A stretch of DNA of 32,000 nucleotides from an uncultured Erysipelotrichaceae bacterium (GTDB taxonomy: Bacteria > Bacillota_I > Bacilli_A > Erysipelotrichales > Erysipelotrichaceae), in contig OW818653.1 of the NCBI GenBank assembly GCA_942492995.1, positions 360,001 to 392,000 of the forward strand, given 5' to 3'. Position 1 is the stretch's first letter. Every line of letters starts with the position of its first letter. The position numbers were made by a program, and so were the translations under genes. Of the stretch, positions 1,565 through 32,000 are shown piece by piece. Under the pieces are notes generated by a model, which saw only the letters and a program-made list of their open reading frames with translations, did not search any database and had not been told where the DNA came from.

Positions 1565-3332
1565 AAGAATTCACTTATTGATTAAAGATGAAGAGAATAA
1601 CGCAGCGATTAATCATTTAAAGAGTATTTTAAAACGGAATCATTGTGAATCGTACATTGAAGTATATTGTCATACCGTAAAGGATGCGGAGAAATCAGTG
1701 TGTGCAATTTATCCGGATGAAATCTTTTATGAGAATTTAAATGAGAATTTAATGCGTTTATTGGTGGAAGTACAGATTCTAAAGGATAAGAAGTTGGATC
1801 AATTTGAAGTTAAACATGTTAATCCAGAGATTAAACACAAATTTGATCAATGGGATAATGATCGTTTTTTCTATAAACAAACACGTGTAGTATTACGCAA
1901 TAATGGAAGAATTAATCCTGAATCAATTGATGAATATATTGCGATTGATGGGTACCAAGCCATTGCGAAAGTACTTTTCGATAAAACGCCTCAAGATGTA
2001 ATTGATGAAATTAGTGCATCAGGTTTGAGAGGTAGAGGCGGTGGTGGTTTCTCTACCGGCATGAAATGGCAACTAGCTAAAAACTCTATCTCAAAGGAAA
2101 AATATGTTATCTGCAATGCGGATGAAGGTGATCCCGGCGCATTTATGGATCGGTCCGTACTAGAAGGTGACCCGCATTCAATTATAGAGGCAATGATGAT
2201 TGCGGCGTATGCGATTGGGGCACATCATGGGTATATTTATATTCGTGCTGAATATCCAGTTGCGGTAGAACGTTTAAAAATCGCAATTAATCAAGCACAT
2301 GAATATGGATTATTGGGCAAAAATATTCTTGATTCAGAGTTTAATTTTGATATAGAGATAAGACTTGGGGCTGGCGCATTTGTGTGTGGAGAAGAAACAG
2401 CTCTAATCGCATCCATTGAAGGTAAACGTGGTACACCTAAACCGCGACCTCCATATCCAAGTGTAAGTGGTGTTTGGGGTAAGCCAACGATTATTAATAA
2501 TGTGGAAACATTTGCGAATATAACACCGATTATATTGAAAGGTGCGAAGTGGTTTAGAACGATTGGATCAGAGAAATCACCTGGTACTAAAGTATTTGCG
2601 TTAGGTGGAAAGATTAAACAAACTGGTTTAGTTGAAGTTAGTATGGGGATTACATTAAAAGAAGTTGTTTATGATATTGGTAAAGGATGTCCGAATAATA
2701 AGAAATTTAAGGCGATGCAGACGGGTGGACCGAGCGGTGGTTGTATTACTGAAGAAAATCTCGATACACCAATCGGATTTGATGAATTAGTCCAATTAGG
2801 TTCCATGATGGGATCGGGTGGCATGATAATCCTAGATGAGGATAACTGTATGGTAGATGTGGCACGTTTCTATATGGATTTTATTGTGGATGAATCATGT
2901 GGTAAATGTACGCCATGTCGTATTGGCACTAAACGATTACTTGAGATGTTGAATCAAATTACTGAAGGGAATGGAACGCTAGAATTACTCGATGAAATGG
3001 AAGAGTTGGCTTATTATATTAAAGAAAACTCATTATGTGGTTTAGGTCAAACAGCTGCGAATCCATTCTTATCAACCTATCATAATTTTAAACATGAATA
3101 CATTCGTCATGTTGTCGATAAAAAATGTGATTCGAAAGTATGTAAAGCATTGCTTGATTACACAATTAAAGTTGATCTATGCAAGAAATGTGGTATTTGT
3201 GCGCGTGGATGTCCTACGTATGCGATTAGCGGAACAGTTGGTAAAGATCCATTTGTGATTGATCCAGAGTTATGTATTCGTTGTGGTGCATGTGTATTAA
3301 ATTGCAAATTTGATGCGATTGTGAGGGCATAA
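1551..3332 (+). CDS. hydB: NuoF-like FMN/NADH-binding subunit of [FeFe]-hydrogenase (HydB type)
   Basis: 593 aa. Motifs seen: GRGGGGFSTGMKW and CNADEGDPGAFMDR (NuoF FMN/NADH site), ESCGKCTPCRIG (N3-type 4Fe-4S), and a C-terminal 2x[4Fe-4S] ferredoxin (CKKCGICARGCP, CIRCGACVLNC). The N-terminal ~90 aa resemble a thioredoxin-like domain but lack a full cysteine set. Confidence 0.9.
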   Translation: MMKARRIHLLIKDEENNAAINHLKSILKRNHCESYIEVYCHTVKDAEKSVCAIYPDEIFYENLNENLMRLLVEVQILKDKKLDQFEVKHVNPEIKHKFDQWDNDRFFYKQTRVVLRNNGRINPESIDEYIAIDGYQAIAKVLFDKTPQDVIDEISASGLRGRGGGGFSTGMKWQLAKNSISKEKYVICNADEGDPGAFMDRSVLEGDPHSIIEAMMIAAYAIGAHHGYIYIRAEYPVAVERLKIAINQAHEYGLLGKNILDSEFNFDIEIRLGAGAFVCGEETALIASIEGKRGTPKPRPPYPSVSGVWGKPTIINNVETFANITPIILKGAKWFRTIGSEKSPGTKVFALGGKIKQTGLVEVSMGITLKEVVYDIGKGCPNNKKFKAMQTGGPSGGCITEENLDTPIGFDELVQLGSMMGSGGMIILDEDNCMVDVARFYMDFIVDESCGKCTPCRIGTKRLLEMLNQITEGNGTLELLDEMEELAYYIKENSLCGLGQTAANPFLSTYHNFKHEYIRHVVDKKCDSKVCKALLDYTIKVDLCKKCGICARGCPTYAISGTVGKDPFVIDPELCIRCGACVLNCKFDAIVRA

Positions 3333-3333
3333 T

Positions 3334-5103
3334 ATGAAACTAATTAAATGTGAAATCAATCGAAGAGAAATACAAGTAAGAGAAGATTTAACTATTCTAG
3401 AGGCATGTCGATTAAATAATGTGAATATACCAACCTTATGTCATCTTGTAGGATGTCCAGTTAAAGGGGCATGTCGCATTTGTGTTGTGGAAGTTGAAGG
3501 TAAGAAGAATTGTGTTCCTGCATGTGTATCTAAAGTTGAAGAGGGTATGAAGATTCAAACGCATTCTAAACGAGCAATCGCATCGCGTAAAATGACATTA
3601 GAATTACTTCTATCGAACCATAGTCAAGATTGTTTAAGTTGTATTCGAAATCAGAAATGTGAATTACAGAGTTTAGCGCAAGAATTGAATATTAGACAAA
3701 TAAATCAAAGTGGATCTAAAACAGAAGTGCATTTTGATGATTTATCGAATGGTATCATACGTGATTCAAGTAAGTGTATTTTGTGTGGTCGCTGTATCGA
3801 TACATGCAAGAGTATCCAAGGTCTCGGCGTATTAAATTATATGCATCGTGGATTTGAAACACGTGTTGGTCCAGTACTTGATTTGAGTTTATCGCAAGTC
3901 AATTGTATTCAATGTGGTCAATGTATCCTTAATTGTCCGGTTGGGGCTTTAAGTGAAAAAGAAGAAATACATGACGTAATTGAGGCATTAAATGATCCGT
4001 ACAAACATGTCATCGTTCAAACCGCACCTGCAGTTCGTGCATCGCTTGGAGAAGAATTTGGATATCCAATAGGGACACGCGTTACAGGTAAAATGGTTTC
4101 CGCATTAAAACGTGTTGGATTCGATAGAGTATATGACACTGATTTTGCGGCAGATTTAACGATAATTGAGGAAGGGCATGAATTACTTCATCGTTTAGAA
4201 AAAAATGAGAATTTGCCACTTATTACATCATGTAGTCCTGGTTGGATTAACTATTGTGAAAAAGAATATCCAGAAATTCTTAATCATCTATCATCGTGTA
4301 AGAGTCCACATATGATGTTTGGCGCAATCTTGAAAACGTATTACGCAAAAACGCATTTCATTGACCCAAAAGATGTCATAGTTGTAAGTATTATGCCGTG
4401 TACAGCTAAAAAAGATGAAAAAAATCGTGAAGAAAACAGAGGAACATATGGAAAAGATGTCGATCATGTACTCACAACCCGCGAATGTGCACGTTTAATT
4501 AAACTTTATGGAATTGATTTTACTCGTTTAGAAGATGAACCATTTGATCAAGATATGTTTGGGGAATCAAGTGGAGCTGGTGTAATATTCGGTGTTAGTG
4601 GTGGTGTCATGGAAGCTGCACTTAGAACAGTGAGTGAAATTGTGACGGGTAAAACACTTGAAAAATTAGAATTTGAAACGTTACGTGGATTTAAAACAAT
4701 TCGTGAAGCAGAACTGGATTTAAATGGGGCTAAGGTAAAAGTAGCGGTTGTGTACAGTATGAAAGAAGCTAAACAAGTGTGTGAAGCCATCAAGAATCAT
4801 ACGTCACCGTATACGTTTATTGAAATCATGGCATGTCCTGGTGGTTGTATAAATGGTGGAGGACAATCGATTATTGATAAGAGTCATGCCCATATTAGTA
4901 AAGATGATCTTATGAAACTAAGAGCACAAGCACTCTATACTGAAGATCGATTTAATCCATTACGTAAATCACATGATAATGTATTGATTAAATCACTTTA
5001 TATGAACTTCTTAGGCAATGCGGGTGGTCCATTAGCCCATGAATTATTGCATACGCATTATAATTTAAAAGAAAAATTCAATTATTACCCAGATGAGGCA
5101 TAA
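3334..5103 (+). CDS. hydA: [FeFe]-hydrogenase catalytic subunit, M3-type architecture
   Basis: 589 aa. N-terminal 2Fe-2S, a His-ligated cluster motif (HSQDCLSCIRNQKC) and two ferredoxin motifs (CILCGRCIDTC, CIQCGQCILNCP). H-cluster motifs: L1 TSCSPGW (variant), L2 MPCTAKKDE, L3 EIMACPGGCINGGGQ. Confidence 0.92.
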   Translation: MKLIKCEINRREIQVREDLTILEACRLNNVNIPTLCHLVGCPVKGACRICVVEVEGKKNCVPACVSKVEEGMKIQTHSKRAIASRKMTLELLLSNHSQDCLSCIRNQKCELQSLAQELNIRQINQSGSKTEVHFDDLSNGIIRDSSKCILCGRCIDTCKSIQGLGVLNYMHRGFETRVGPVLDLSLSQVNCIQCGQCILNCPVGALSEKEEIHDVIEALNDPYKHVIVQTAPAVRASLGEEFGYPIGTRVTGKMVSALKRVGFDRVYDTDFAADLTIIEEGHELLHRLEKNENLPLITSCSPGWINYCEKEYPEILNHLSSCKSPHMMFGAILKTYYAKTHFIDPKDVIVVSIMPCTAKKDEKNREENRGTYGKDVDHVLTTRECARLIKLYGIDFTRLEDEPFDQDMFGESSGAGVIFGVSGGVMEAALRTVSEIVTGKTLEKLEFETLRGFKTIREAELDLNGAKVKVAVVYSMKEAKQVCEAIKNHTSPYTFIEIMACPGGCINGGGQSIIDKSHAHISKDDLMKLRAQALYTEDRFNPLRKSHDNVLIKSLYMNFLGNAGGPLAHELLHTHYNLKEKFNYYPDEA

Positions 5104-5106
5104 TAT

Positions 5107-5135
5107 TTGATTATTTAGTACACAAAGACTAAACT
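5107..5135 (+). promoter_or_regulatory. Candidate sigma-A promoter of the rib leader (TTGATT-17 nt-TAAACT)
   Basis: -35 TTGATT at 5107-5112 and -10 TAAACT at 5130-5135 with a 17-nt spacer, located just upstream of the FMN aptamer. Confidence 0.4.
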
Positions 5136-5147
5136 TTGATTAATCAA

Positions 5148-5262
5148 AAACCAACTTCAGGGCAGGGTTCAATTCCCGACCGGTGGTATACCCCACGGGC
5201 ATTTAATGCATGAATCTGTGAAACTCAGATGGCGACAGTATAGTCTGGATGAAAGAAGTCTT
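5148..5262 (+). promoter_or_regulatory. FMN riboswitch (RFN element) aptamer
   Basis: Contains the conserved RFN core strings CUUCAGGGCAGGGU..AAUUCCCGACCGGUGGUA, GCGACAGUAUAGUCUGGAUGAAAGAAG and the P1 pairing ACUUC/GAAGU. It lies directly upstream of the rib genes. Confidence 0.92.
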
Positions 5263-5268
5263 TTATCG

Positions 5269-5306: not shown

Positions 5307-5990
5307 ATGAAACCATTCGTATTTATTAAAGCCGCTATGAGTTTAGATGGAAAAATTGCCACAAAAACAGGTGAAAGCCAATGGATATCAAATACTAAGT
5401 CGAGAGCGTATGTACATCAACTAAGATCAGAATATGACGCAATATGTGTTGGGGTCCAAACAGTTATCTTAGATAATCCAAGACTTACCATTCGTAAAGA
5501 AGGGACGGAAAGTTGTCACTATCGCTTAATTCTTGATAGTAAAGGACGTATTCCGTTAGACAGTAATGTACTAAATGATGTATATAAAAATAAGACAATC
5601 GTGTTTAGTACAAACGCAATTGATAAGATTGTTGAAAATGAACTATTGAATCGTGGTATAAAACTGATTAAACTGAAATCAAAGGATGGTCGAATCGATT
5701 TAAACGATTGGATTCGTCAATGCGAGAAATTAAATATAAAATCAATTTTTGTGGAAGGCGGAGGTGAAGTAATTGCGTCGATGTTAAAGGAAGAGATTGT
5801 CGATAAGATAGCCGTTGCGATAGCGCCAATCATAATTGGTGGTCAACAGGCAAAAAGCTTTGTGTCAGGAGATGGAATTGAACATTTAAAAGATGCGATC
5901 CAGTTAGAAAAGCCATCAATAAAATGGTTTGATGACGATTGTGTTATAGAGTACACCATAAAACGAGGGAAACAAGATGAAAACAACTAG
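5307..5990 (+). CDS. ribD: Stand-alone RibD-type pyrimidine reductase (no deaminase domain)
   Basis: 227 aa that align along their length with the C-terminal reductase half of bifunctional RibD/RibG ([54 protein letters not shown]). No CMP/dCMP-deaminase zinc motif is present, and the 5' side is occupied by the riboswitch. Confidence 0.85.
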
Positions 5991-26989: not shown

Positions 26990-27358
26990 TTAAATAGTAA
27001 CTAATTTTTCGTTTGGTAACCAACCTTCATCTAGTTGATTAATCTTCTTACACCATGTCCAGCCATTAAGTTCAATCGTGCCTTCAACAGTTTCGTCTTT
27101 TTGAACATCTAACTCTACTGCAGAATAATCTTCTAATACAGTTCCATATGCACCTTCGATTTGAATGATTTGGATTGGTGTCCATCCTTCGCCATTTTCA
27201 TCGCTATAACAGTAAATCCAATTTGGCCAATTCCCATTACTATTCGATTTTTCTCCAAGTCTTACTTTTGAACCTTTTGTAATAATAATTGGTGTAGTGT
27301 TATCATTTTTATGATCATCTATTGTTTTGTACATCATAAGCATTTCCTGCCTTTTCAT
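26990..27358 (-). CDS. Small cytoplasmic protein with two SH3-like repeats
   Basis: 122 aa with two segments that end in SH3-like GW-x-P motifs (ENGEGWTPIQII and LDEGWLPNEKLV). No signal peptide. Confidence 0.45.
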   Translation of the reverse strand: MKRQEMLMMYKTIDDHKNDNTTPIIITKGSKVRLGEKSNSNGNWPNWIYCYSDENGEGWTPIQIIQIEGAYGTVLEDYSAVELDVQKDETVEGTIELNGWTWCKKINQLDEGWLPNEKLVTI

Positions 27359-27428: not shown

Positions 27429-28007
27429 ATGAAAACACTTTATCTAATGCGCCATGGACAAACTTTATTTAATCAAAGACATAAAGTACAAGGTTTTTGT
27501 GATTCACCGCTTACAGAACTAGGAATTAATCAAGCTAAAATAGCACGTAGGTACTTTGATAAGAATTCAATTACATTTGATCATGCGTATTCATCCACAT
27601 CAGAACGTGCAAGTGATACGTTAGAACTTATAACTGATATGGATTATAAACGTTTAAAAGGACTAAAAGAATGGAATTTTGGATCATTTGAAGGGGAAAG
27701 TGAAGATTTAAATCCTAAGTTACCGTATGGTGATTTCTTTGTGTCATATGGAGGAGAAGGTGAGTTAGATTTTCAAAAACGAGTATCTGATACAATTCTA
27801 GAGATTATGCAAAAAGAGGATCATGATACTGTTTTAATGGTAAGTCATGGGGCATCATGTCGTACCTTCATGCGTTATTGGGGACATAAGAGTTCTGTGG
27901 ATCATATCGGTAGAATTGGGAATTGTTGCATATTAAAGTTTGCGTTTGAGAATAATGAGTTTACATTACTTGAAGTAATTAACCATAATTTTGATGAATT
28001 AAAATAA
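27429..28007 (+). CDS. Histidine-phosphatase (phosphoglycerate-mutase-like) family protein
   Basis: 192 aa with the catalytic RHG motif (LYLMRHGQTLFN), ERASDT and a second His in VSHGA. Confidence 0.85.
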   Translation: MKTLYLMRHGQTLFNQRHKVQGFCDSPLTELGINQAKIARRYFDKNSITFDHAYSSTSERASDTLELITDMDYKRLKGLKEWNFGSFEGESEDLNPKLPYGDFFVSYGGEGELDFQKRVSDTILEIMQKEDHDTVLMVSHGASCRTFMRYWGHKSSVDHIGRIGNCCILKFAFENNEFTLLEVINHNFDELK

Positions 28008-28025
28008 AAAGAGCAACGCTCTTTT
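28008..28025. terminator. Short bidirectional terminator hairpin
   Basis: AAAGAGC (28008-28014), loop AAC, GCTCTTT (28018-28024), flanked by an A-run and a T-run, between convergent genes. Confidence 0.55.
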
Positions 28026-29274
28026 AGGCAAACATTGACATAATTTGTGTCACAAATAATGTCGTTGTAAGTGAAATTATAAATAATACAGTTAATGTTG
28101 ATACGATATTTTGGAATCGATTATTTACCATAGTTCCCATTATATTGCGATCATTAATTAATAGAATCATGAATATAAGGATTACTGGAACAAGGATACC
28201 TGCAATTTGTTGAGTACGTAAAATAAGTGGAATTAAATTTAAGTTTGGGATCAATACTAGACTTGCTGTAATCCCGATAATTCCAAATAATATTGTGAAG
28301 AATGCTTTTGCCTCGGAAGGGGTATTATTAACACCGTTTTCCCAACCAAATGCTTCACAAATCGCATAGGCTGTTGATAATGGAATAATTGCACATGCTA
28401 ATACGGATGCACCAAATAATCCAGCTCCGAAAAGTATAAACGCATAATCACCGGCTAATGGTTTAAGTGCTAACGCAATACTTGAAACACTATCGGCTTG
28501 AATACCAGCTTTATGTAACGTTGCTGCCGTCACAACGATTACGAAGAACGAAATAATAGCTCCCCAAACAGCACCTAAATAGACATCCAATTTTTCATAC
28601 TTATAATCTTTTAAACTTAAGTTCTTATCTACAATCGCAGCTTGTAAATAAAACTGCATGTAAGGAGAAATTGTTGTACCAATTAAACCAATAAAGGTTA
28701 AGAGATATGCACTATTCATTTCGATACTCGGTGATACAACAGCTTTAAATACTTCTGGCCAATCTGGTTTAATAATAATGGCTGAGAAAATATAACTAAA
28801 GAACGCAAAACTAAACATTAAGAATATTTTTTCAACTTTATTGTAACTTCCATGGCTAACAAGATATGAAATAAGGATCGCTACAACCGGCACTGATATG
28901 TATTTTGTAATACCAAATAATTCTAAACTTGCCGCAACACCCGCAAAATCTCCGAGTGTTACTCCGAAATTCGCAACCAATAATACAATCATTGCGAAGA
29001 ATGTCCATTTAACGCCGAATTTCTCGCGAATTAAATCAGATAAACCCTTACCACTAACAACTGCCATACGTGCATTCATTTCTTGGATGATTGCTAATGC
29101 AAAGGTAAGAAGTAATAAGCCCCATAACATACTATATCCATACTTAGCTCCAATACTTGCGAAGGTTGAAATACCACCTGCATCATTTCCAGCATTTACG
29201 GTAATCAATCCTGGCCCAACAATTGCGAGTACGTAGCTAATCTTAGCCCAACGTTTTTTAAGCATTTCTTTCAT
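28024..29274 (-). CDS. NRAMP-fold cation transporter with a non-canonical metal site (NRMT-like, possibly Mg2+)
   Basis: About 416 aa, about 11 TM. TM1 reads GPGLITVNAGNDAGGISTFASIGAKYGYSMLW, so DPGN is replaced by DAGG (nt 29184-29173). TM6 reads GTTISPYMQFYLQ, so the Mn/Fe-selecting Met and the following His are replaced by Ser and Tyr. The ATG at 29274 overlaps the upstream stop (ATGA); an alternative ATG lies at 29286. Confidence 0.8.
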   Translation of the reverse strand: MKEMLKKRWAKISYVLAIVGPGLITVNAGNDAGGISTFASIGAKYGYSMLWGLLLLTFALAIIQEMNARMAVVSGKGLSDLIREKFGVKWTFFAMIVLLVANFGVTLGDFAGVAASLELFGITKYISVPVVAILISYLVSHGSYNKVEKIFLMFSFAFFSYIFSAIIIKPDWPEVFKAVVSPSIEMNSAYLLTFIGLIGTTISPYMQFYLQAAIVDKNLSLKDYKYEKLDVYLGAVWGAIISFFVIVVTAATLHKAGIQADSVSSIALALKPLAGDYAFILFGAGLFGASVLACAIIPLSTAYAICEAFGWENGVNNTPSEAKAFFTILFGIIGITASLVLIPNLNLIPLILRTQQIAGILVPVILIFMILLINDRNIMGTMVNNRFQNIVSTLTVLFIISLTTTLFVTQIMSMFA

Positions 29275-30530
29275 ATTAAATCCCATTCCTTACCAAATTC
29301 ATTCACTAAATCATTGGTTGATGTTATACCGATTAAGATTTGATTCGAATCCAATACCGGTAATATCATCAGGTTATACTTTAATAACCATTCCATAGCT
29401 TTTTCAACAGAATCATTGTCATTTAAATAGACGAGTTGTTGATTTTTATCAATGACGTCACTAATCATCATATTCAAATCAGAACGGATAAGTTCCATTA
29501 ATGATACAACACCTTGAAGTTGATAATCATGATTCACAATGTAGATATAATGTGATGTTTCTTCTGTATATTCAGTATTTTTTAGTAAATCTAATATATC
29601 TTTTACTTTCATTTCTTCACTAAACGCTAAGAAATCGATCATCATTAAACTACCAACTGTTTTATCTTTATATTTTAATAACTCTCGAATTTCTAATGAA
29701 TTGTCTTCATCCATATCATCAAGTAATCGATTAACTTGTTCTGTTTCCATCTCTTCCAGAATATCGGCAACTTCATCAGATGGCATTAATTCCAATACAT
29801 CTGTTGCTTGTTCAATGGTTAGATTCTCAATTAAACTAACTTGTGTTTCAGATTCAATTTCTTCTAATACATCAGCCGCTAATTCAGCATCTAAACTTTG
29901 GAATAATGTAACTTGAGCTTTTTTATCTAAATCTTCTAAGATGTCGGCTAAATCCGCCACGTGTAATGTATTTAATTTATGCACAGAAGAGTTTAATTGT
30001 AGATTATCTTTTCCATGGGTTAGGGATTGAACATCATCCCATGCGACTAAACTATTTCTAAATGTTTTATTTAACTTAGTTGATATAAATATACCTAAAT
30101 ACTCAACACCTAAACGACGCATTAATCCTCTAAATCCGATATCAACTGCGATTAATACCCATTTACCATCAACTAATGCGATACGTACATCATTTACGCG
30201 TTCTACTTTCTTACCCTCTATATCGATGATTTGTTTATCTAAGAAATCACGTGCTAAGAATACATCCGTTTCTGGGATTGGTACAAATGATAAATTTTGT
30301 GAGTTTAGTTTAATATGATAGCGTTCTTTATTATCATGCGTTACGACAAGTGATTGCATCATGATAAAAAAGTCGCGTTTACCATTTTTTACGACAATGG
30401 CTCGTACGACTGGTAATGGTAAACTAAAATCAACGACTAAGTCGTGTAGATTACCTATGATTGAATTATCAATGTTGTAGATATGTTTGTACAATATCTT
30501 ACTAAAAAAGAAATGTGTGGATGTGATCAT
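29271..30530 (-). CDS. Soluble MgtE-N-domain + CBS-pair protein (no membrane domain), with an N-terminal beta-rich (PRC-barrel-like) region
   Basis: 419 aa. Residues ~190-290 match the acidic helical MgtE N-domain (LHVADLADILEDLDKKAQVTLFQSLDAELAADVLEEIESE...MPSDEVADILEEME), followed by a tandem CBS pair (TVGSLMMIDF...; MMISDVIDKNQQLV...LMILPVLD). The protein ends right after CBS2. AGGAG RBS at 30540-30536. Confidence 0.8.
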   Translation of the reverse strand: MITSTHFFFSKILYKHIYNIDNSIIGNLHDLVVDFSLPLPVVRAIVVKNGKRDFFIMMQSLVVTHDNKERYHIKLNSQNLSFVPIPETDVFLARDFLDKQIIDIEGKKVERVNDVRIALVDGKWVLIAVDIGFRGLMRRLGVEYLGIFISTKLNKTFRNSLVAWDDVQSLTHGKDNLQLNSSVHKLNTLHVADLADILEDLDKKAQVTLFQSLDAELAADVLEEIESETQVSLIENLTIEQATDVLELMPSDEVADILEEMETEQVNRLLDDMDEDNSLEIRELLKYKDKTVGSLMMIDFLAFSEEMKVKDILDLLKNTEYTEETSHYIYIVNHDYQLQGVVSLMELIRSDLNMMISDVIDKNQQLVYLNDNDSVEKAMEWLLKYNLMILPVLDSNQILIGITSTNDLVNEFGKEWDLI

Positions 30531-30731
30531 GATTGCTCCTTAAATAGGAACAATCACCCTGAATAGTTCCTAATTATTTATCCATTTTGGATGGAATGAT
30601 TAAATTTTTACGATACTGGTTCAGGTCTATGTCCATATAGTTATCTCCATGCTAGTTTATTTTAGTCTTTTATCAATAATATTTCCACATATTTCGAATT
30701 AATTAAGTATTATCAACTTTTTACATTAGTT

Positions 30732-30761
30732 TATTAACTTCGAATCCATTTCAGTTGACAA
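30732..30761 (-). promoter_or_regulatory. Candidate promoter for the MgtE-N/CBS + NRAMP operon (TTGTCA-18 nt-TTAATA)
   Basis: On the minus strand, -35 at 30761-30756 and -10 at 30737-30732. This would give a leader of roughly 190 nt. The hexamers are weak, and other AT-rich candidates exist. Confidence 0.3.
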
Positions 30762-30783
30762 AAATCATTGAAATAATTAAACT
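30755..30783 (+). promoter_or_regulatory. thrS leader promoter (TTGACA-17 nt-TAAACT)
   Basis: Consensus -35 TTGACA at 30755-30760 and -10 TAAACT at 30778-30783, just upstream of the T-box Stem I. Confidence 0.5.
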
Positions 30784-30789
30784 ACTACT

Positions 30790-30998
30790 ATAGCCAAAGC
30801 TTAAGACATGATGTTAAGTATTTCGTTAAGAGAGAAAGTGGTTGGTGTAAACTTTCCTTAATGCTTAATTATTACCACTTGAGGGGTGAATCTTAGAAAA
30901 GATTCCGTTTAGTCAACGTTAACGATGAAGTGCAAGGCTTATATAGCTTTGAATTAAGGTGGTACCGCGAACTCTCGTCCTTTGGATGGGAGTTTTTT
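30790..30998 (+). promoter_or_regulatory. T-box leader (threonine, ACC specifier) with terminator
   Basis: Stem I elements AGAGAGAAAGTGGTTGGTGTAAAC; candidate specifier ACC followed by A at 30874-30877; conserved T-box sequence AATTAAGGTGGTACCGCG (30952-30969); terminator AACTCTCGTCC / GGATGGGAGTT (30970-30994) with a T-run. Confidence 0.88.
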
Positions 30999-31020
30999 GT
31001 TTCTAAAAAGGAGAAAGAAA

Positions 31021-32000
31021 ATGATTAATGTAAAAGAGAATGCTGAATTAAATGTATTGAATCATTCATGTGCACATTTAATGGCGCAAGCGATTAAACG
31101 TATACATCCCCATGCTTTATTTTGGGTAGGACCTGTAATTACAGAAGGGTTTTATTATGACATTGATTTAGGTGATACAGTTTTAAGTGAAAGTGATTTC
31201 CCTAAGATTGAGGCTGAAATGAAGAAGATTTCTAAAGATGGTAAACGTATTATTCGTGAAGAAATCTCTAAAGAAGAAGCGTTAGAACGTTTTAAGAATG
31301 ATCCATATAAATTAGATCTAATTAATAATATGGAAGGTGTCACAATCACTACATTCAAACAAGGTGAATTTGAAGATTTATGTCGTGGACCACATGTTGA
31401 AAGTGTTAAAGAATTAAAGTTCTATAAACTACTTAAAGTATCCGGTGCTTATTGGAAGGGTGATGCCAACAATAAGATGTTACAACGCGTATACGGTATT
31501 TGTTTCGATACTCAAGAGGCTTTGGATCAACACCTATATTTACTTGAAGAAGCGAAGAAACGTGACCATAAGAAGCTAGGCAAAGAATTAGGCTTATTCA
31601 TGATGAGTGAATTTGGCCCTGGATTCCCATTCTGGTTGGATAAAGGGATGATTCTACGTAATATCTTAGAAAACTTCTGGTATGAAGAACATACTAAAGA
31701 AGGCTACCAATTCATTAAGACACCGATTATGTTGTCTCAAGAACTATGGGAAGTATCAGGTCACTGGTTCAACTATAAAGAAAATATGTATATCTCAGAT
31801 GTGGATGATCGTCAATTTGCGATTAAACCAATGAACTGTCCAGGTGGAATGTTAGTGTATAAGAATGATTTACATTCCTATAAAGATCTTCCATTAAGAG
31901 TTGGAGAACTTGGTTTAGTTCATCGTCATGAAGCATCGGGCGCATTGAATGGTTTATTCCGTGTTCGTACATTTACACAAGATGATGCACATCTATATAT
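31021..32000 (+). CDS. thrS: Threonyl-tRNA synthetase, 5' part (continues beyond the window), apparently without the N-terminal TGS domain
   Basis: AAAGGAGA RBS. Translation begins MINVKENAELNVLNHSCAHLMAQAIKR..., which is the editing (N2) domain HxxxH motif at residue ~15. Later motifs: CRGPH, GAYWKGD, KKRDHKKLG, and class II motifs up to FRVRTFTQDDAH. Confidence 0.92.
   Translation, partial: MINVKENAELNVLNHSCAHLMAQAIKRIHPHALFWVGPVITEGFYYDIDLGDTVLSESDFPKIEAEMKKISKDGKRIIREEISKEEALERFKNDPYKLDLINNMEGVTITTFKQGEFEDLCRGPHVESVKELKFYKLLKVSGAYWKGDANNKMLQRVYGICFDTQEALDQHLYLLEEAKKRDHKKLGKELGLFMMSEFGPGFPFWLDKGMILRNILENFWYEEHTKEGYQFIKTPIMLSQELWEVSGHWFNYKENMYISDVDDRQFAIKPMNCPGGMLVYKNDLHSYKDLPLRVGELGLVHRHEASGALNGLFRVRTFTQDDAHLY

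Follow-up and report, generated by a model that had tools for sequence, protein, structure and literature searches.

NRMTs, the NRAMP-related Mg2+ transporters, make up a fourth class of bacterial Mg2+ importers. CorA and MgtE have their brake built in as a cytosolic Mg2+ sensor, whereas NRMTs have no cytosolic domain; uptake is driven by the membrane potential alone, and a brake is therefore needed. The conserved partner protein encoded beside NRMT genes, first mentioned twelve years ago, is the obvious brake candidate. Here we describe such a gene pair in a stretch of 32,000 nucleotides (nt) from an uncultured Erysipelotrichaceae bacterium (assembly GCA_942492995.1, contig OW818653.1, positions 360,001 to 392,000), hereafter the window, in which two minus-strand open reading frames (ORFs) fill positions 28024-30530. 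The downstream one encodes an SLC11/Nramp carrier of the NRMT clade, and the upstream one a soluble MgtE-like protein, called the partner throughout.

The class was named NrmT by Shin et al. 2014 (PLoS Genet, PMC4072509), who found that most NrmT genes adjoin a gene for an MgtE cytoplasmic domain in what they called "mgtE-nramp operons", and who speculated that the product of this gene could be involved in cytoplasmic feedback regulation or serve as a metal chaperone. According to the same study only a subset of NrmTs, often linked to the M-box riboswitch, are high-affinity Mg2+ transporters; the M-box, found with a subset of NrmTs, was taken as a marker of Mg2+ specificity, not as a defining trait. 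EleNRMT from Eggerthella lenta transports both Mg2+ and Mn2+ on its own, uncoupled from H+, and the signature of the NRMT metal site is DxxG in helix 1 and TxxA/T in helix 6, as compared to DxxN and A/CxxM in canonical members of the family (Ramanadane et al. 2022, PMC8806188). Our literature search yielded no later functional study of the partner, which is left aside in the structural and phylogenetic papers published since then, and no paper joining the PRC barrel with MgtE or Nramp, or with CBS and magnesium.

The window locus is a chromosomal bicistronic operon of this known mgtE-nramp (NrmT) type, of which hundreds exist. The initial annotation of the window, made from the sequence alone, knew of no functional description of such a pairing, a claim that has to be withdrawn, as Shin et al. 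(PMC4072509) both described the operons and proposed the same feedback idea. The outcome for the window is a corrected claim of novelty together with a firm family for the transporter. Added here to the published account are the tandem PRC barrels of the partner, which are not mentioned by Shin et al. 2014 (PMC4072509), its derivation from PRC-MgtE channels, the pattern of kept and lost ligands, and a quantified linkage of the two genes.

Identity of the two genes

The partner gene (29271..30530, minus strand) encodes 419 amino acids (aa) and the carrier gene (28024..29274, minus strand), recognized by Pfam and by matches to PDB sequences, encodes 416 aa. The TGA stop of the former and the ATG start of the latter overlap as ATGA at 29271..29274 on the minus strand, as read in the sequence. 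A second in-frame ATG for the carrier is situated further upstream, at 29286; the ATGA start is favored because most of the listed homologues of at least 93% identity are annotated as 416 aa.

The carrier matches the Pfam Nramp domain (PF01566, E 1.1e-92) and has about 10-11 hydrophobic segments by hydropathy, where a 19-residue Kyte-Doolittle mean of 1.6 was the cut-off for a transmembrane-like (TM-like) segment. Its best match among PDB sequences is EleNRMT (7qia; E 5.6e-103, 348.7 bits, full length), with 99.4 bits for the next-best chain and at most 99 bits for every canonical Nramp chain, e.g. 83-87 bits for the DraNramp MntH chains. Ordinary MntH sequences in the PDB match at E-values of about 1e-23 to 1e-27, and the NCBIfam MntH model reaches 116.6 bits against a cutoff of 430. 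By these matches the carrier is classed as a clear NRMT and not as a canonical MntH.

The metal site points the same way. In the translation, the TM1 motif reads D31-A-G-G34 (29173..29184, minus strand), i.e. DxxG instead of DPGN, and the TM6 motif reads T200-T-I-S203-P-Y205 (28660..28677, minus strand), i.e. TxxS instead of AxxM, with His replaced by Tyr. DxxG is present in all 80 related NRMT loci collected as described below, and TM6 is always T-x-x-(A/T/S/C) in these; the T200 position is T in 80/80 and forms an invariant column of our alignment A1. The TISPY variant is rare, being found in the window and in three of 66 partner-adjacent sequences, the others having TIAPW and TITPY/W, and Ser203 is the sole departure from the published NRMT consensus, with its Ala or Thr at the former Met position. 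The positions of the alpha-6b proton-pathway His residues are occupied by Y205 and L210. Consequently, what had initially been described as a rewired metal site is the family signature of the known NRMT clade, which has a solved structure, in a minor Ser variant. The idea of a different metal-site motif in NRMTs without a partner was rejected, the motif being the same as in the partnered ones.

For the partner, Pfam identified a PRC domain at aa 6-59 (E 2.1e-7, 31.3 bits, cutoff 21.2), a second PRC match at aa 89-134 just under the cutoff (E 8.5e-4, 19.7 bits), MgtE_N at aa 189-289 (E 2.4e-26) and two CBS stretches (E 9.8e-12), and no DNA-binding, RNA-binding or enzymatic domain. Together with structure prediction and conservation this gives the following layout, all on the minus strand: PRC barrel 1 (PF05239) at aa 1-80 (30291..30530), modelled confidently as beta-rich; PRC barrel 2 with two helices at aa 85-170 (30021..30278), recognized by the sub-cutoff match, the model and its conservation; a linker; and, by Pfam and alignment with MgtE, a strongly acidic MgtE N-domain at aa 186-289 (29664..29975) and a CBS pair at aa 290-411 (29298..29663). 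The net charge is -24 over residues 186-290 and -38 over aa 186-419. No TM segment was found by hydropathy, the top 19-residue Kyte-Doolittle mean being 1.43, and the C-terminus lies 12 residues past the conserved Asp of CBS2 (D407).

In the AlphaFold2 model of the partner (mean predicted local distance difference test score, pLDDT, 81.7; alignment of n=51 sequences), aa 1-170 form two beta-barrels, which are followed by a disordered linker (169-185) and then by the helical N-domain and the CBS pair. By employing Foldseek, we found MgtE cytosolic domains on top for the C-terminal half (8gpv, E 7e-19), and PRC-barrel proteins, namely the tandem-PRC CdpB1/B2, the reaction-centre H subunit and RimM, for the separately modelled aa 1-185. 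At the sequence level, aa 186-410 align with the cytosolic domain of Thermus thermophilus MgtE (E 1.8e-24), and the NCBIfam mgtE model (TIGR00400) gives 127 bits against a cutoff of 232.75, covering only profile positions 24-249 of 450. An MgtE pore domain is not encoded anywhere in the window (tblastn). Given this missing pore, the sub-cutoff score with TIGR00400, the lack of a TM segment and the end shortly after D407, the partner is therefore not an MgtE channel.

When aa 1-185 were searched against 1.84 billion representative proteins, 1172 clusters passed E<=1e-3, 340 of them also E<=1e-10. Of the 150 best matches many were 400-440 aa long, many were shorter and apparently partial, and about ten were of ~600 aa; the MgtE pore domain PF01769 was present in 8/10 of the latter. 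On this basis the partner represents, without the pore, the MgtE subclass that has two PRC barrels at the N-terminus. Over 66 multi-phylum partners, the PRC barrel 2 region (aa 85-170) has 14 residues that are at least 90% conserved, as compared to 13 in MgtE_N, and these two make up the most conserved block of the protein; the peptide KVERVND of the PRC barrel 2 region was picked as the most conserved one. The high conservation of aa 85-170 therefore marks this region as a functional surface. The tails that follow CBS2 in the orthologues are mostly short and basic, e.g. RKKRRKL, WKKRLPRLYR and, in close Clostridia, RLRR. The tail of the window partner, FGKEWDLI (29271-29297), is not basic, unlike that of most orthologues.

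Could the pair be an artefact, i.e. an ordinary MntH whose metal site has decayed, or a frameshifted MgtE gene? This reading is refuted. The MntH model stays far below its cutoff and the metal-site signature is common to all 80 loci; other assemblies contain homologues of 100% (rounded) identity; no pore domain that a frameshift might have separated from the partner is found downstream or elsewhere in the window; and 66/68 partner orthologues end at most 25 aa past CBS2. The identity of both genes, an NRMT carrier and a pore-less MgtE-type partner, is hardly in doubt. Each feature that the initial annotation had observed is confirmed, namely the 419-aa soluble upstream protein with an MgtE N-domain, a CBS pair and no TM helix, on which Pfam and hydropathy agree, the ATGA overlap, and the DAGG (D31-G34) and Ser-Pro-Tyr (S203-Y205) motifs. 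Neither a grouping of the carrier with ordinary MntH nor a frameshifted pore domain, both listed by the annotation as refuting its proposal, was found. Its rule that NRAMP-related Mg2+ transporters keep the Asp and lose the Asn and Met matches the published signature (PMC8806188). The profile searches that it proposed matched MgtE_N, CBS, PRC-barrel and Nramp in Pfam as expected, the second PRC below cutoff, and the proposed check for TM segments likewise separated a partner with none from a carrier with about 10-11.

Conservation of the gene pair

Scanning the NRMT alignment against one genome per species gave 80 loci, distributed over Bacillota, Syntrophales and other Deltaproteobacteria, Nitrospirota, Chloroflexota, Acidobacteriota, Omnitrophota, Patescibacteria and DPANN archaea. 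The partner was sought at these loci with our own hidden Markov models, built from its two halves, and in a reverse test the partner alignment was run against metagenome contigs. The partner was found directly upstream of the NRMT in 65 out of 76 evaluable loci, in many phyla, and elsewhere (overlapping, downstream, or ~1.1-1.2 kb upstream) in another four. Conversely, an NRMT was situated directly downstream in 57 of the 74 evaluable partner loci. As the gene order recurs in 65/76 loci the pairing is not due to chance, and its conservation in related genomes, which the initial annotation had made a test of its proposal, is established in both search directions. The two genes are also closely spaced: in 43/64 junctions they overlap or are at most 30 nt apart, comprising 12 overlaps, of which 8 measure 4 nt, and 31 junctions with a gap of 0-30 nt. 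A PRC region was identified in 63/65 adjacent partners, the remaining two being cut by a contig end, and tandem N-terminal PRC barrels are thereby a constant part of the partner.

The partner-like genes with no NRMT beside them, 17 in number and here called orphans, are all distant homologues, 32-38% identical by the best tblastn segment. Eleven of them (L104, L123, L135, L136, L140, L143, L144, L151, L153, L154 and L155) share a similar layout of downstream ORFs. Pfam matches for the downstream ORFs in L123, L151, L135 and L104 include a cysK-like PALP enzyme, and in L123 also a cysE-like hexapeptide transferase and queG. A conserved protein of ~200 aa with 5-7 TM segments is encoded directly upstream of the orphan in four loci and ~3 kb upstream in five. 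It was considered as a split MgtE pore and rejected, having no Pfam match at E<=10 and lying ~3 kb off in several loci; opposite-strand ORFs intervene between its gene and the orphan in L151, L153 and L155, and its occurrence probably reflects lineage synteny.

Three loci have other configurations. In L058, from a Coriobacteriia metagenome-assembled genome (DASXUP010000019.1, 2737-6200), an M-box (2737-2907) is followed by a gene for a product of ~600 aa (3154-4992) and, ~8-15 nt on, by the NRMT. The ~600-aa product has two PRC, one MgtE_N and two CBS domains, a plug-like acidic helix and 4-5 hydrophobic segments, with a weak PF01769 match in its tail (24.5 bits, just under cutoff). This full-length PRC-MgtE channel in the place of the soluble partner may represent an evolutionary intermediate. 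In L099, an orphan PRC-MgtE_N-CBS gene (3965-5227) without an NRMT nearby is preceded, at a distance of 11 nt, by a CorA gene (2944-3954; Pfam CorA, E 4e-52), the single case of the soluble module beside another Mg2+ transporter family. In L124, a PRC-MgtE_N-CBS gene that stands alone (1139-2470) has an M-box-like element (967-1124; nhmmer E 1e-36) immediately 5' of it, and the genes after it (gluconolactonase-like, gyrB) are unrelated; the soluble protein alone can therefore be under Mg2+ riboswitch control.

A candidate Mg2+-responsive brake

The Mg2+ sites of MgtE, and the closure of the channel by Mg2+ at its cytosolic sites, have been listed by Maruyama et al. 2018 (PMC5882242). We mapped the cytosolic ligands by alignment onto 68 multi-phylum partner orthologues. 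The Mg7 ligand E59 corresponds to D220 in the window partner (acidic in 60/68 orthologues), the Mg4 ligands D91 and D247 to D252 (Asp in 54/68) and D407 (Asp in 51/68), respectively, and the Mg6 ligand D95 to D256 (Asp in 65/68), which means that four out of six cytosolic ligands are kept and two are Asn. MgtE also has an ATP site in its CBS domain, formed by Y170, R187, D188, N203 and F227 (Tomita et al. 2017, PMC5529423). The corresponding positions of the window partner are Y328, M345, E346, D361 and L387, and the F227 position is Leu in 116 out of 118 close partner homologues. A role for the partner as an ATP sensor is weakened by this, the MgtE residues not being kept (e.g. R187 to M345 and F227 to L387).

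The conserved and often overlapping operon, the M-box in relatives and the kept inter-domain ligands of the MgtE clamp support a reading of the partner as a trans-acting, Mg2+-responsive brake on the NRMT, and this is the reading towards which our analysis leans. In such a mechanism, the enlarged site of the NRMT, without the Met and Asn, would admit largely hydrated Mg2+, and also Mn2+, without H+ coupling, by analogy with EleNRMT. Once co-produced, the partner would attach to the carrier on its cytoplasmic side, with PRC barrel 2 as the probable contact, and the acidic N-domain and CBS clamp would bind cytosolic Mg2+ as in MgtE. Under Mg2+-replete conditions the closed clamp would then restrain the carrier, amounting to post-translational feedback inhibition of an uncoupled uptake driven by the membrane potential. 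A more specific version, in which the partner is a detachable Mg2+-sensing gate that docks by its PRC barrels on the cytoplasmic face of the carrier and closes when Mg2+ is replete, is offered tentatively, and we think it rather doubtful; if true, it would give the SLC11/NRAMP transporters their first known regulatory subunit. The PRC-MgtE_N-CBS module might even be portable between pores, acting in cis on MgtE, as in L058 and the other ~600-aa forms, in trans on NRMT and perhaps also on CorA, as in L099.

Several observations weigh against a brake. The Mg5 ligands of MgtE are not kept: D226 corresponds to N386 in the window, a position that is Asn in 41/68 orthologues and Asp in only 7, and D250 to N410, which is variable among the 68, and in MgtE the exchange D226N/D250A abolishes closure (PMC5882242). 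The Mg2/Mg3 ligands of the plug helix (E258/D259) have no counterpart, the partner having already ended. A partner is missing from 7/76 evaluable NRMT loci, and 17/74 partner-like loci have no NRMT in the ~0.5-4 kb of downstream DNA examined. An M-box was not found in the window, either with Rfam at the gathering threshold or with our own nhmmer profile, both over the whole window. NRMTs work without the partner in complementation and in liposomes (PMC4072509, PMC8806188), and in the only published test, where the partner and transporter of Acidobacterium capsulatum were co-expressed in Bacillus subtilis, the rescue was unchanged (PMC4072509). This negative result is weak evidence against a brake: its readout was rescue at limiting Mg2+, and an improvement there would not be expected from an inhibitor.

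The missing M-box also bears on the substrate, as the operon could be mainly a system for Mn2+ uptake with a partner that senses Mn2+ or something else, a reading compatible with the same regulatory architecture. The NrmT of A. capsulatum, which has a partner and no M-box, fully rescued a Mn2+-transport mutant and a Mg2+ mutant only at millimolar Mg2+ (PMC4072509), EleNRMT transports Mn2+ as well, and the carrier has, at the former Met position, a Ser variant that is as yet uncharacterised. Around the start of the operon, Rfam at E<=10 gave no M-box at 30300-31200, and no riboswitch was detected in 30531..30787. By our nhmmer profile, 20 out of 160 related loci have an M-box immediately 5' of the partner gene, with 3 confirmed at the Rfam gathering score, and it is lacking in the nearest relatives of the window (L001 and L025). 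The closest M-box-bearing relatives (L002 and L005) are nevertheless 57-67% identical to the window locus, i.e. closer than the Acidobacteriota-type loci at 44-48% (best tblastn segment). Also at odds with a Mn2+ system are the kept Mg2+-site ligands of the partner, four of the six, and T200, the EleNRMT equivalent of which, T224, is such that its mutation abolishes Mg2+ transport, with Mn2+ transport much less dependent on it (PMC8806188). A mainly Mn2+-dedicated operon is on balance unlikely in our view. Of the cation (probably Mg2+) uptake pair initially proposed, the carrier stands as an NRMT, whereas Mg2+ as its substrate has become less secure: given the lack of an M-box, the Mn2+ behavior of the A. 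capsulatum pair and the dual substrates of EleNRMT, the Mg2+ assignment for the window locus is weaker than first supposed.

Two further functions compete with that of a Mg2+-responsive brake. The first, in metal chaperoning or buffering, or in the assembly or stability of the NRMT, includes an alternative already named by Shin et al. (PMC4072509) and agrees with the very acidic nature of the partner, with the short basic tail of many orthologues, which could touch the membrane or the carrier, and with the comparatively low stability of EleNRMT in detergent and the difficulty of reconstituting it (Ramanadane et al., PMC8806188). The conserved residues are however specifically those that bind Mg2+ between the domains of the MgtE clamp and not a general acidic surface, a stoichiometric protein buffering millimolar Mg2+ is implausible on general grounds, and NRMTs fold and function on their own, all of which makes this function improbable. 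The second is that of a cytosolic Mg2+ sensor that works independently, on targets other than the NRMT or in addition to it, and for which adjacency to the NRMT would mean co-regulation only. The orphans speak for it, above all L124 with its own M-box and L099 just downstream of a CorA gene, and PRC barrels are known in proteins of RNA metabolism and cell division. Tight adjacency, often with overlap, in most evaluable loci of the sampled phyla and in both search directions is hard to reconcile with such a sensor, as are the greater distance of the orphan homologues and the absence of DNA-binding, RNA-binding and enzymatic domains by Pfam, and we regard it as improbable, too.

Genomic surroundings and comparison with known systems

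The operon looks like a self-contained bicistronic unit, since an AAGGAG ribosome-binding site just precedes the ATG of the partner gene and a terminator-like hairpin followed by a T-run is read in the sequence at the NRMT stop codon (28007..28025, minus strand). The intergenic region 5' of the operon (30531..30787, minus strand) is shared with a divergent T-box/thrS unit, and sigma-70-like promoter matches in it are weak only and no more numerous than expected by chance. The neighbors are housekeeping genes, namely pfk, pyk and genes for a ROK kinase, an M29 peptidase and a histidine phosphatase, in addition to the divergent, T-box-controlled thrS. The T-box leader (30788-30985, plus strand, 96.4 bits) has a terminator-like hairpin (30969-30995) and lies 5' of the threonyl-tRNA synthetase gene (31021-32000, plus strand), which runs past the window end. 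Elsewhere, an FMN riboswitch (5149-5264, plus strand, 89.9 bits) is found upstream of an ORF at 5307-5990, and a protein of 122 aa with a variant SH3 domain (SH3_2, E 1.5e-7) is encoded at 26990-27358 on the minus strand, between the plus-strand genes for the M29 aminopeptidase and the histidine phosphatase.

Among the described NrmT mgtE-nramp operons, those of Clostridium acetobutylicum (Ca_c0685 and Ca_c3329) and A. capsulatum have the same gene pair as the window, with the MgtE-like gene upstream. Both C. acetobutylicum loci have an M-box, unlike the window operon, and the Ca_c0685 partner is split in two genes where the window has one. The window operon further differs from the operons of Shin et al. 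in its ATGA overlap, the TxxS in TM6 and its host lineage, Erysipelotrichaceae. The peculiarities of the window, i.e. the lack of an M-box, TxxS, the ATGA overlap and the non-basic C-terminal tail, are minor.

The carrier is 42% identical over its full length to EleNRMT (7qia, 7qic, 7qji, 7qjj), which was studied alone in a paper that does not discuss the partner (PMC8806188). The TM1 segment AGNDAGGIST is identical in the two, with D55 and G58 of EleNRMT corresponding to D31 and G34 in the window, T224 to T200 and Q379 to Q355, while E133 is replaced by D109, which is acidic as well. At the Met position, EleNRMT has Ala and the window Ser203; in alpha-6b, the Trp and Asn of EleNRMT are Tyr205 and L210 in the window, the His of canonical Nramps being lost in both. 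The canonical MntH/Nramp H+-symporters (DraNramp, ScaDMT and EcoDMT) share the LeuT-type fold, PF01566 and the TM1 Asp with the carrier, but have DPGN and A-x-x-M-P-H where it has DAGG and T-x-x-S-P-Y, with a similarity of at most 99 bits.

On the side of the partner, T. thermophilus MgtE (2yvy/2yvx; 8gpv) has an N-domain and a CBS pair that are homologous to those of the partner in sequence and predicted fold. MgtE also has a plug helix and a five-helix pore (PF01769), both of which the window partner lacks, while the partner has the PRC pair in addition. Closest in architecture are the full-length PRC-MgtE channels of ~600 aa, as represented by P0292, P0331, P0356 and the L058 ORF at 3154-4992, which have the module of PRC, MgtE_N and two CBS domains in common with the partner and, in contrast to it, keep the PF01769 pore, so that sensor and pore are joined in cis.

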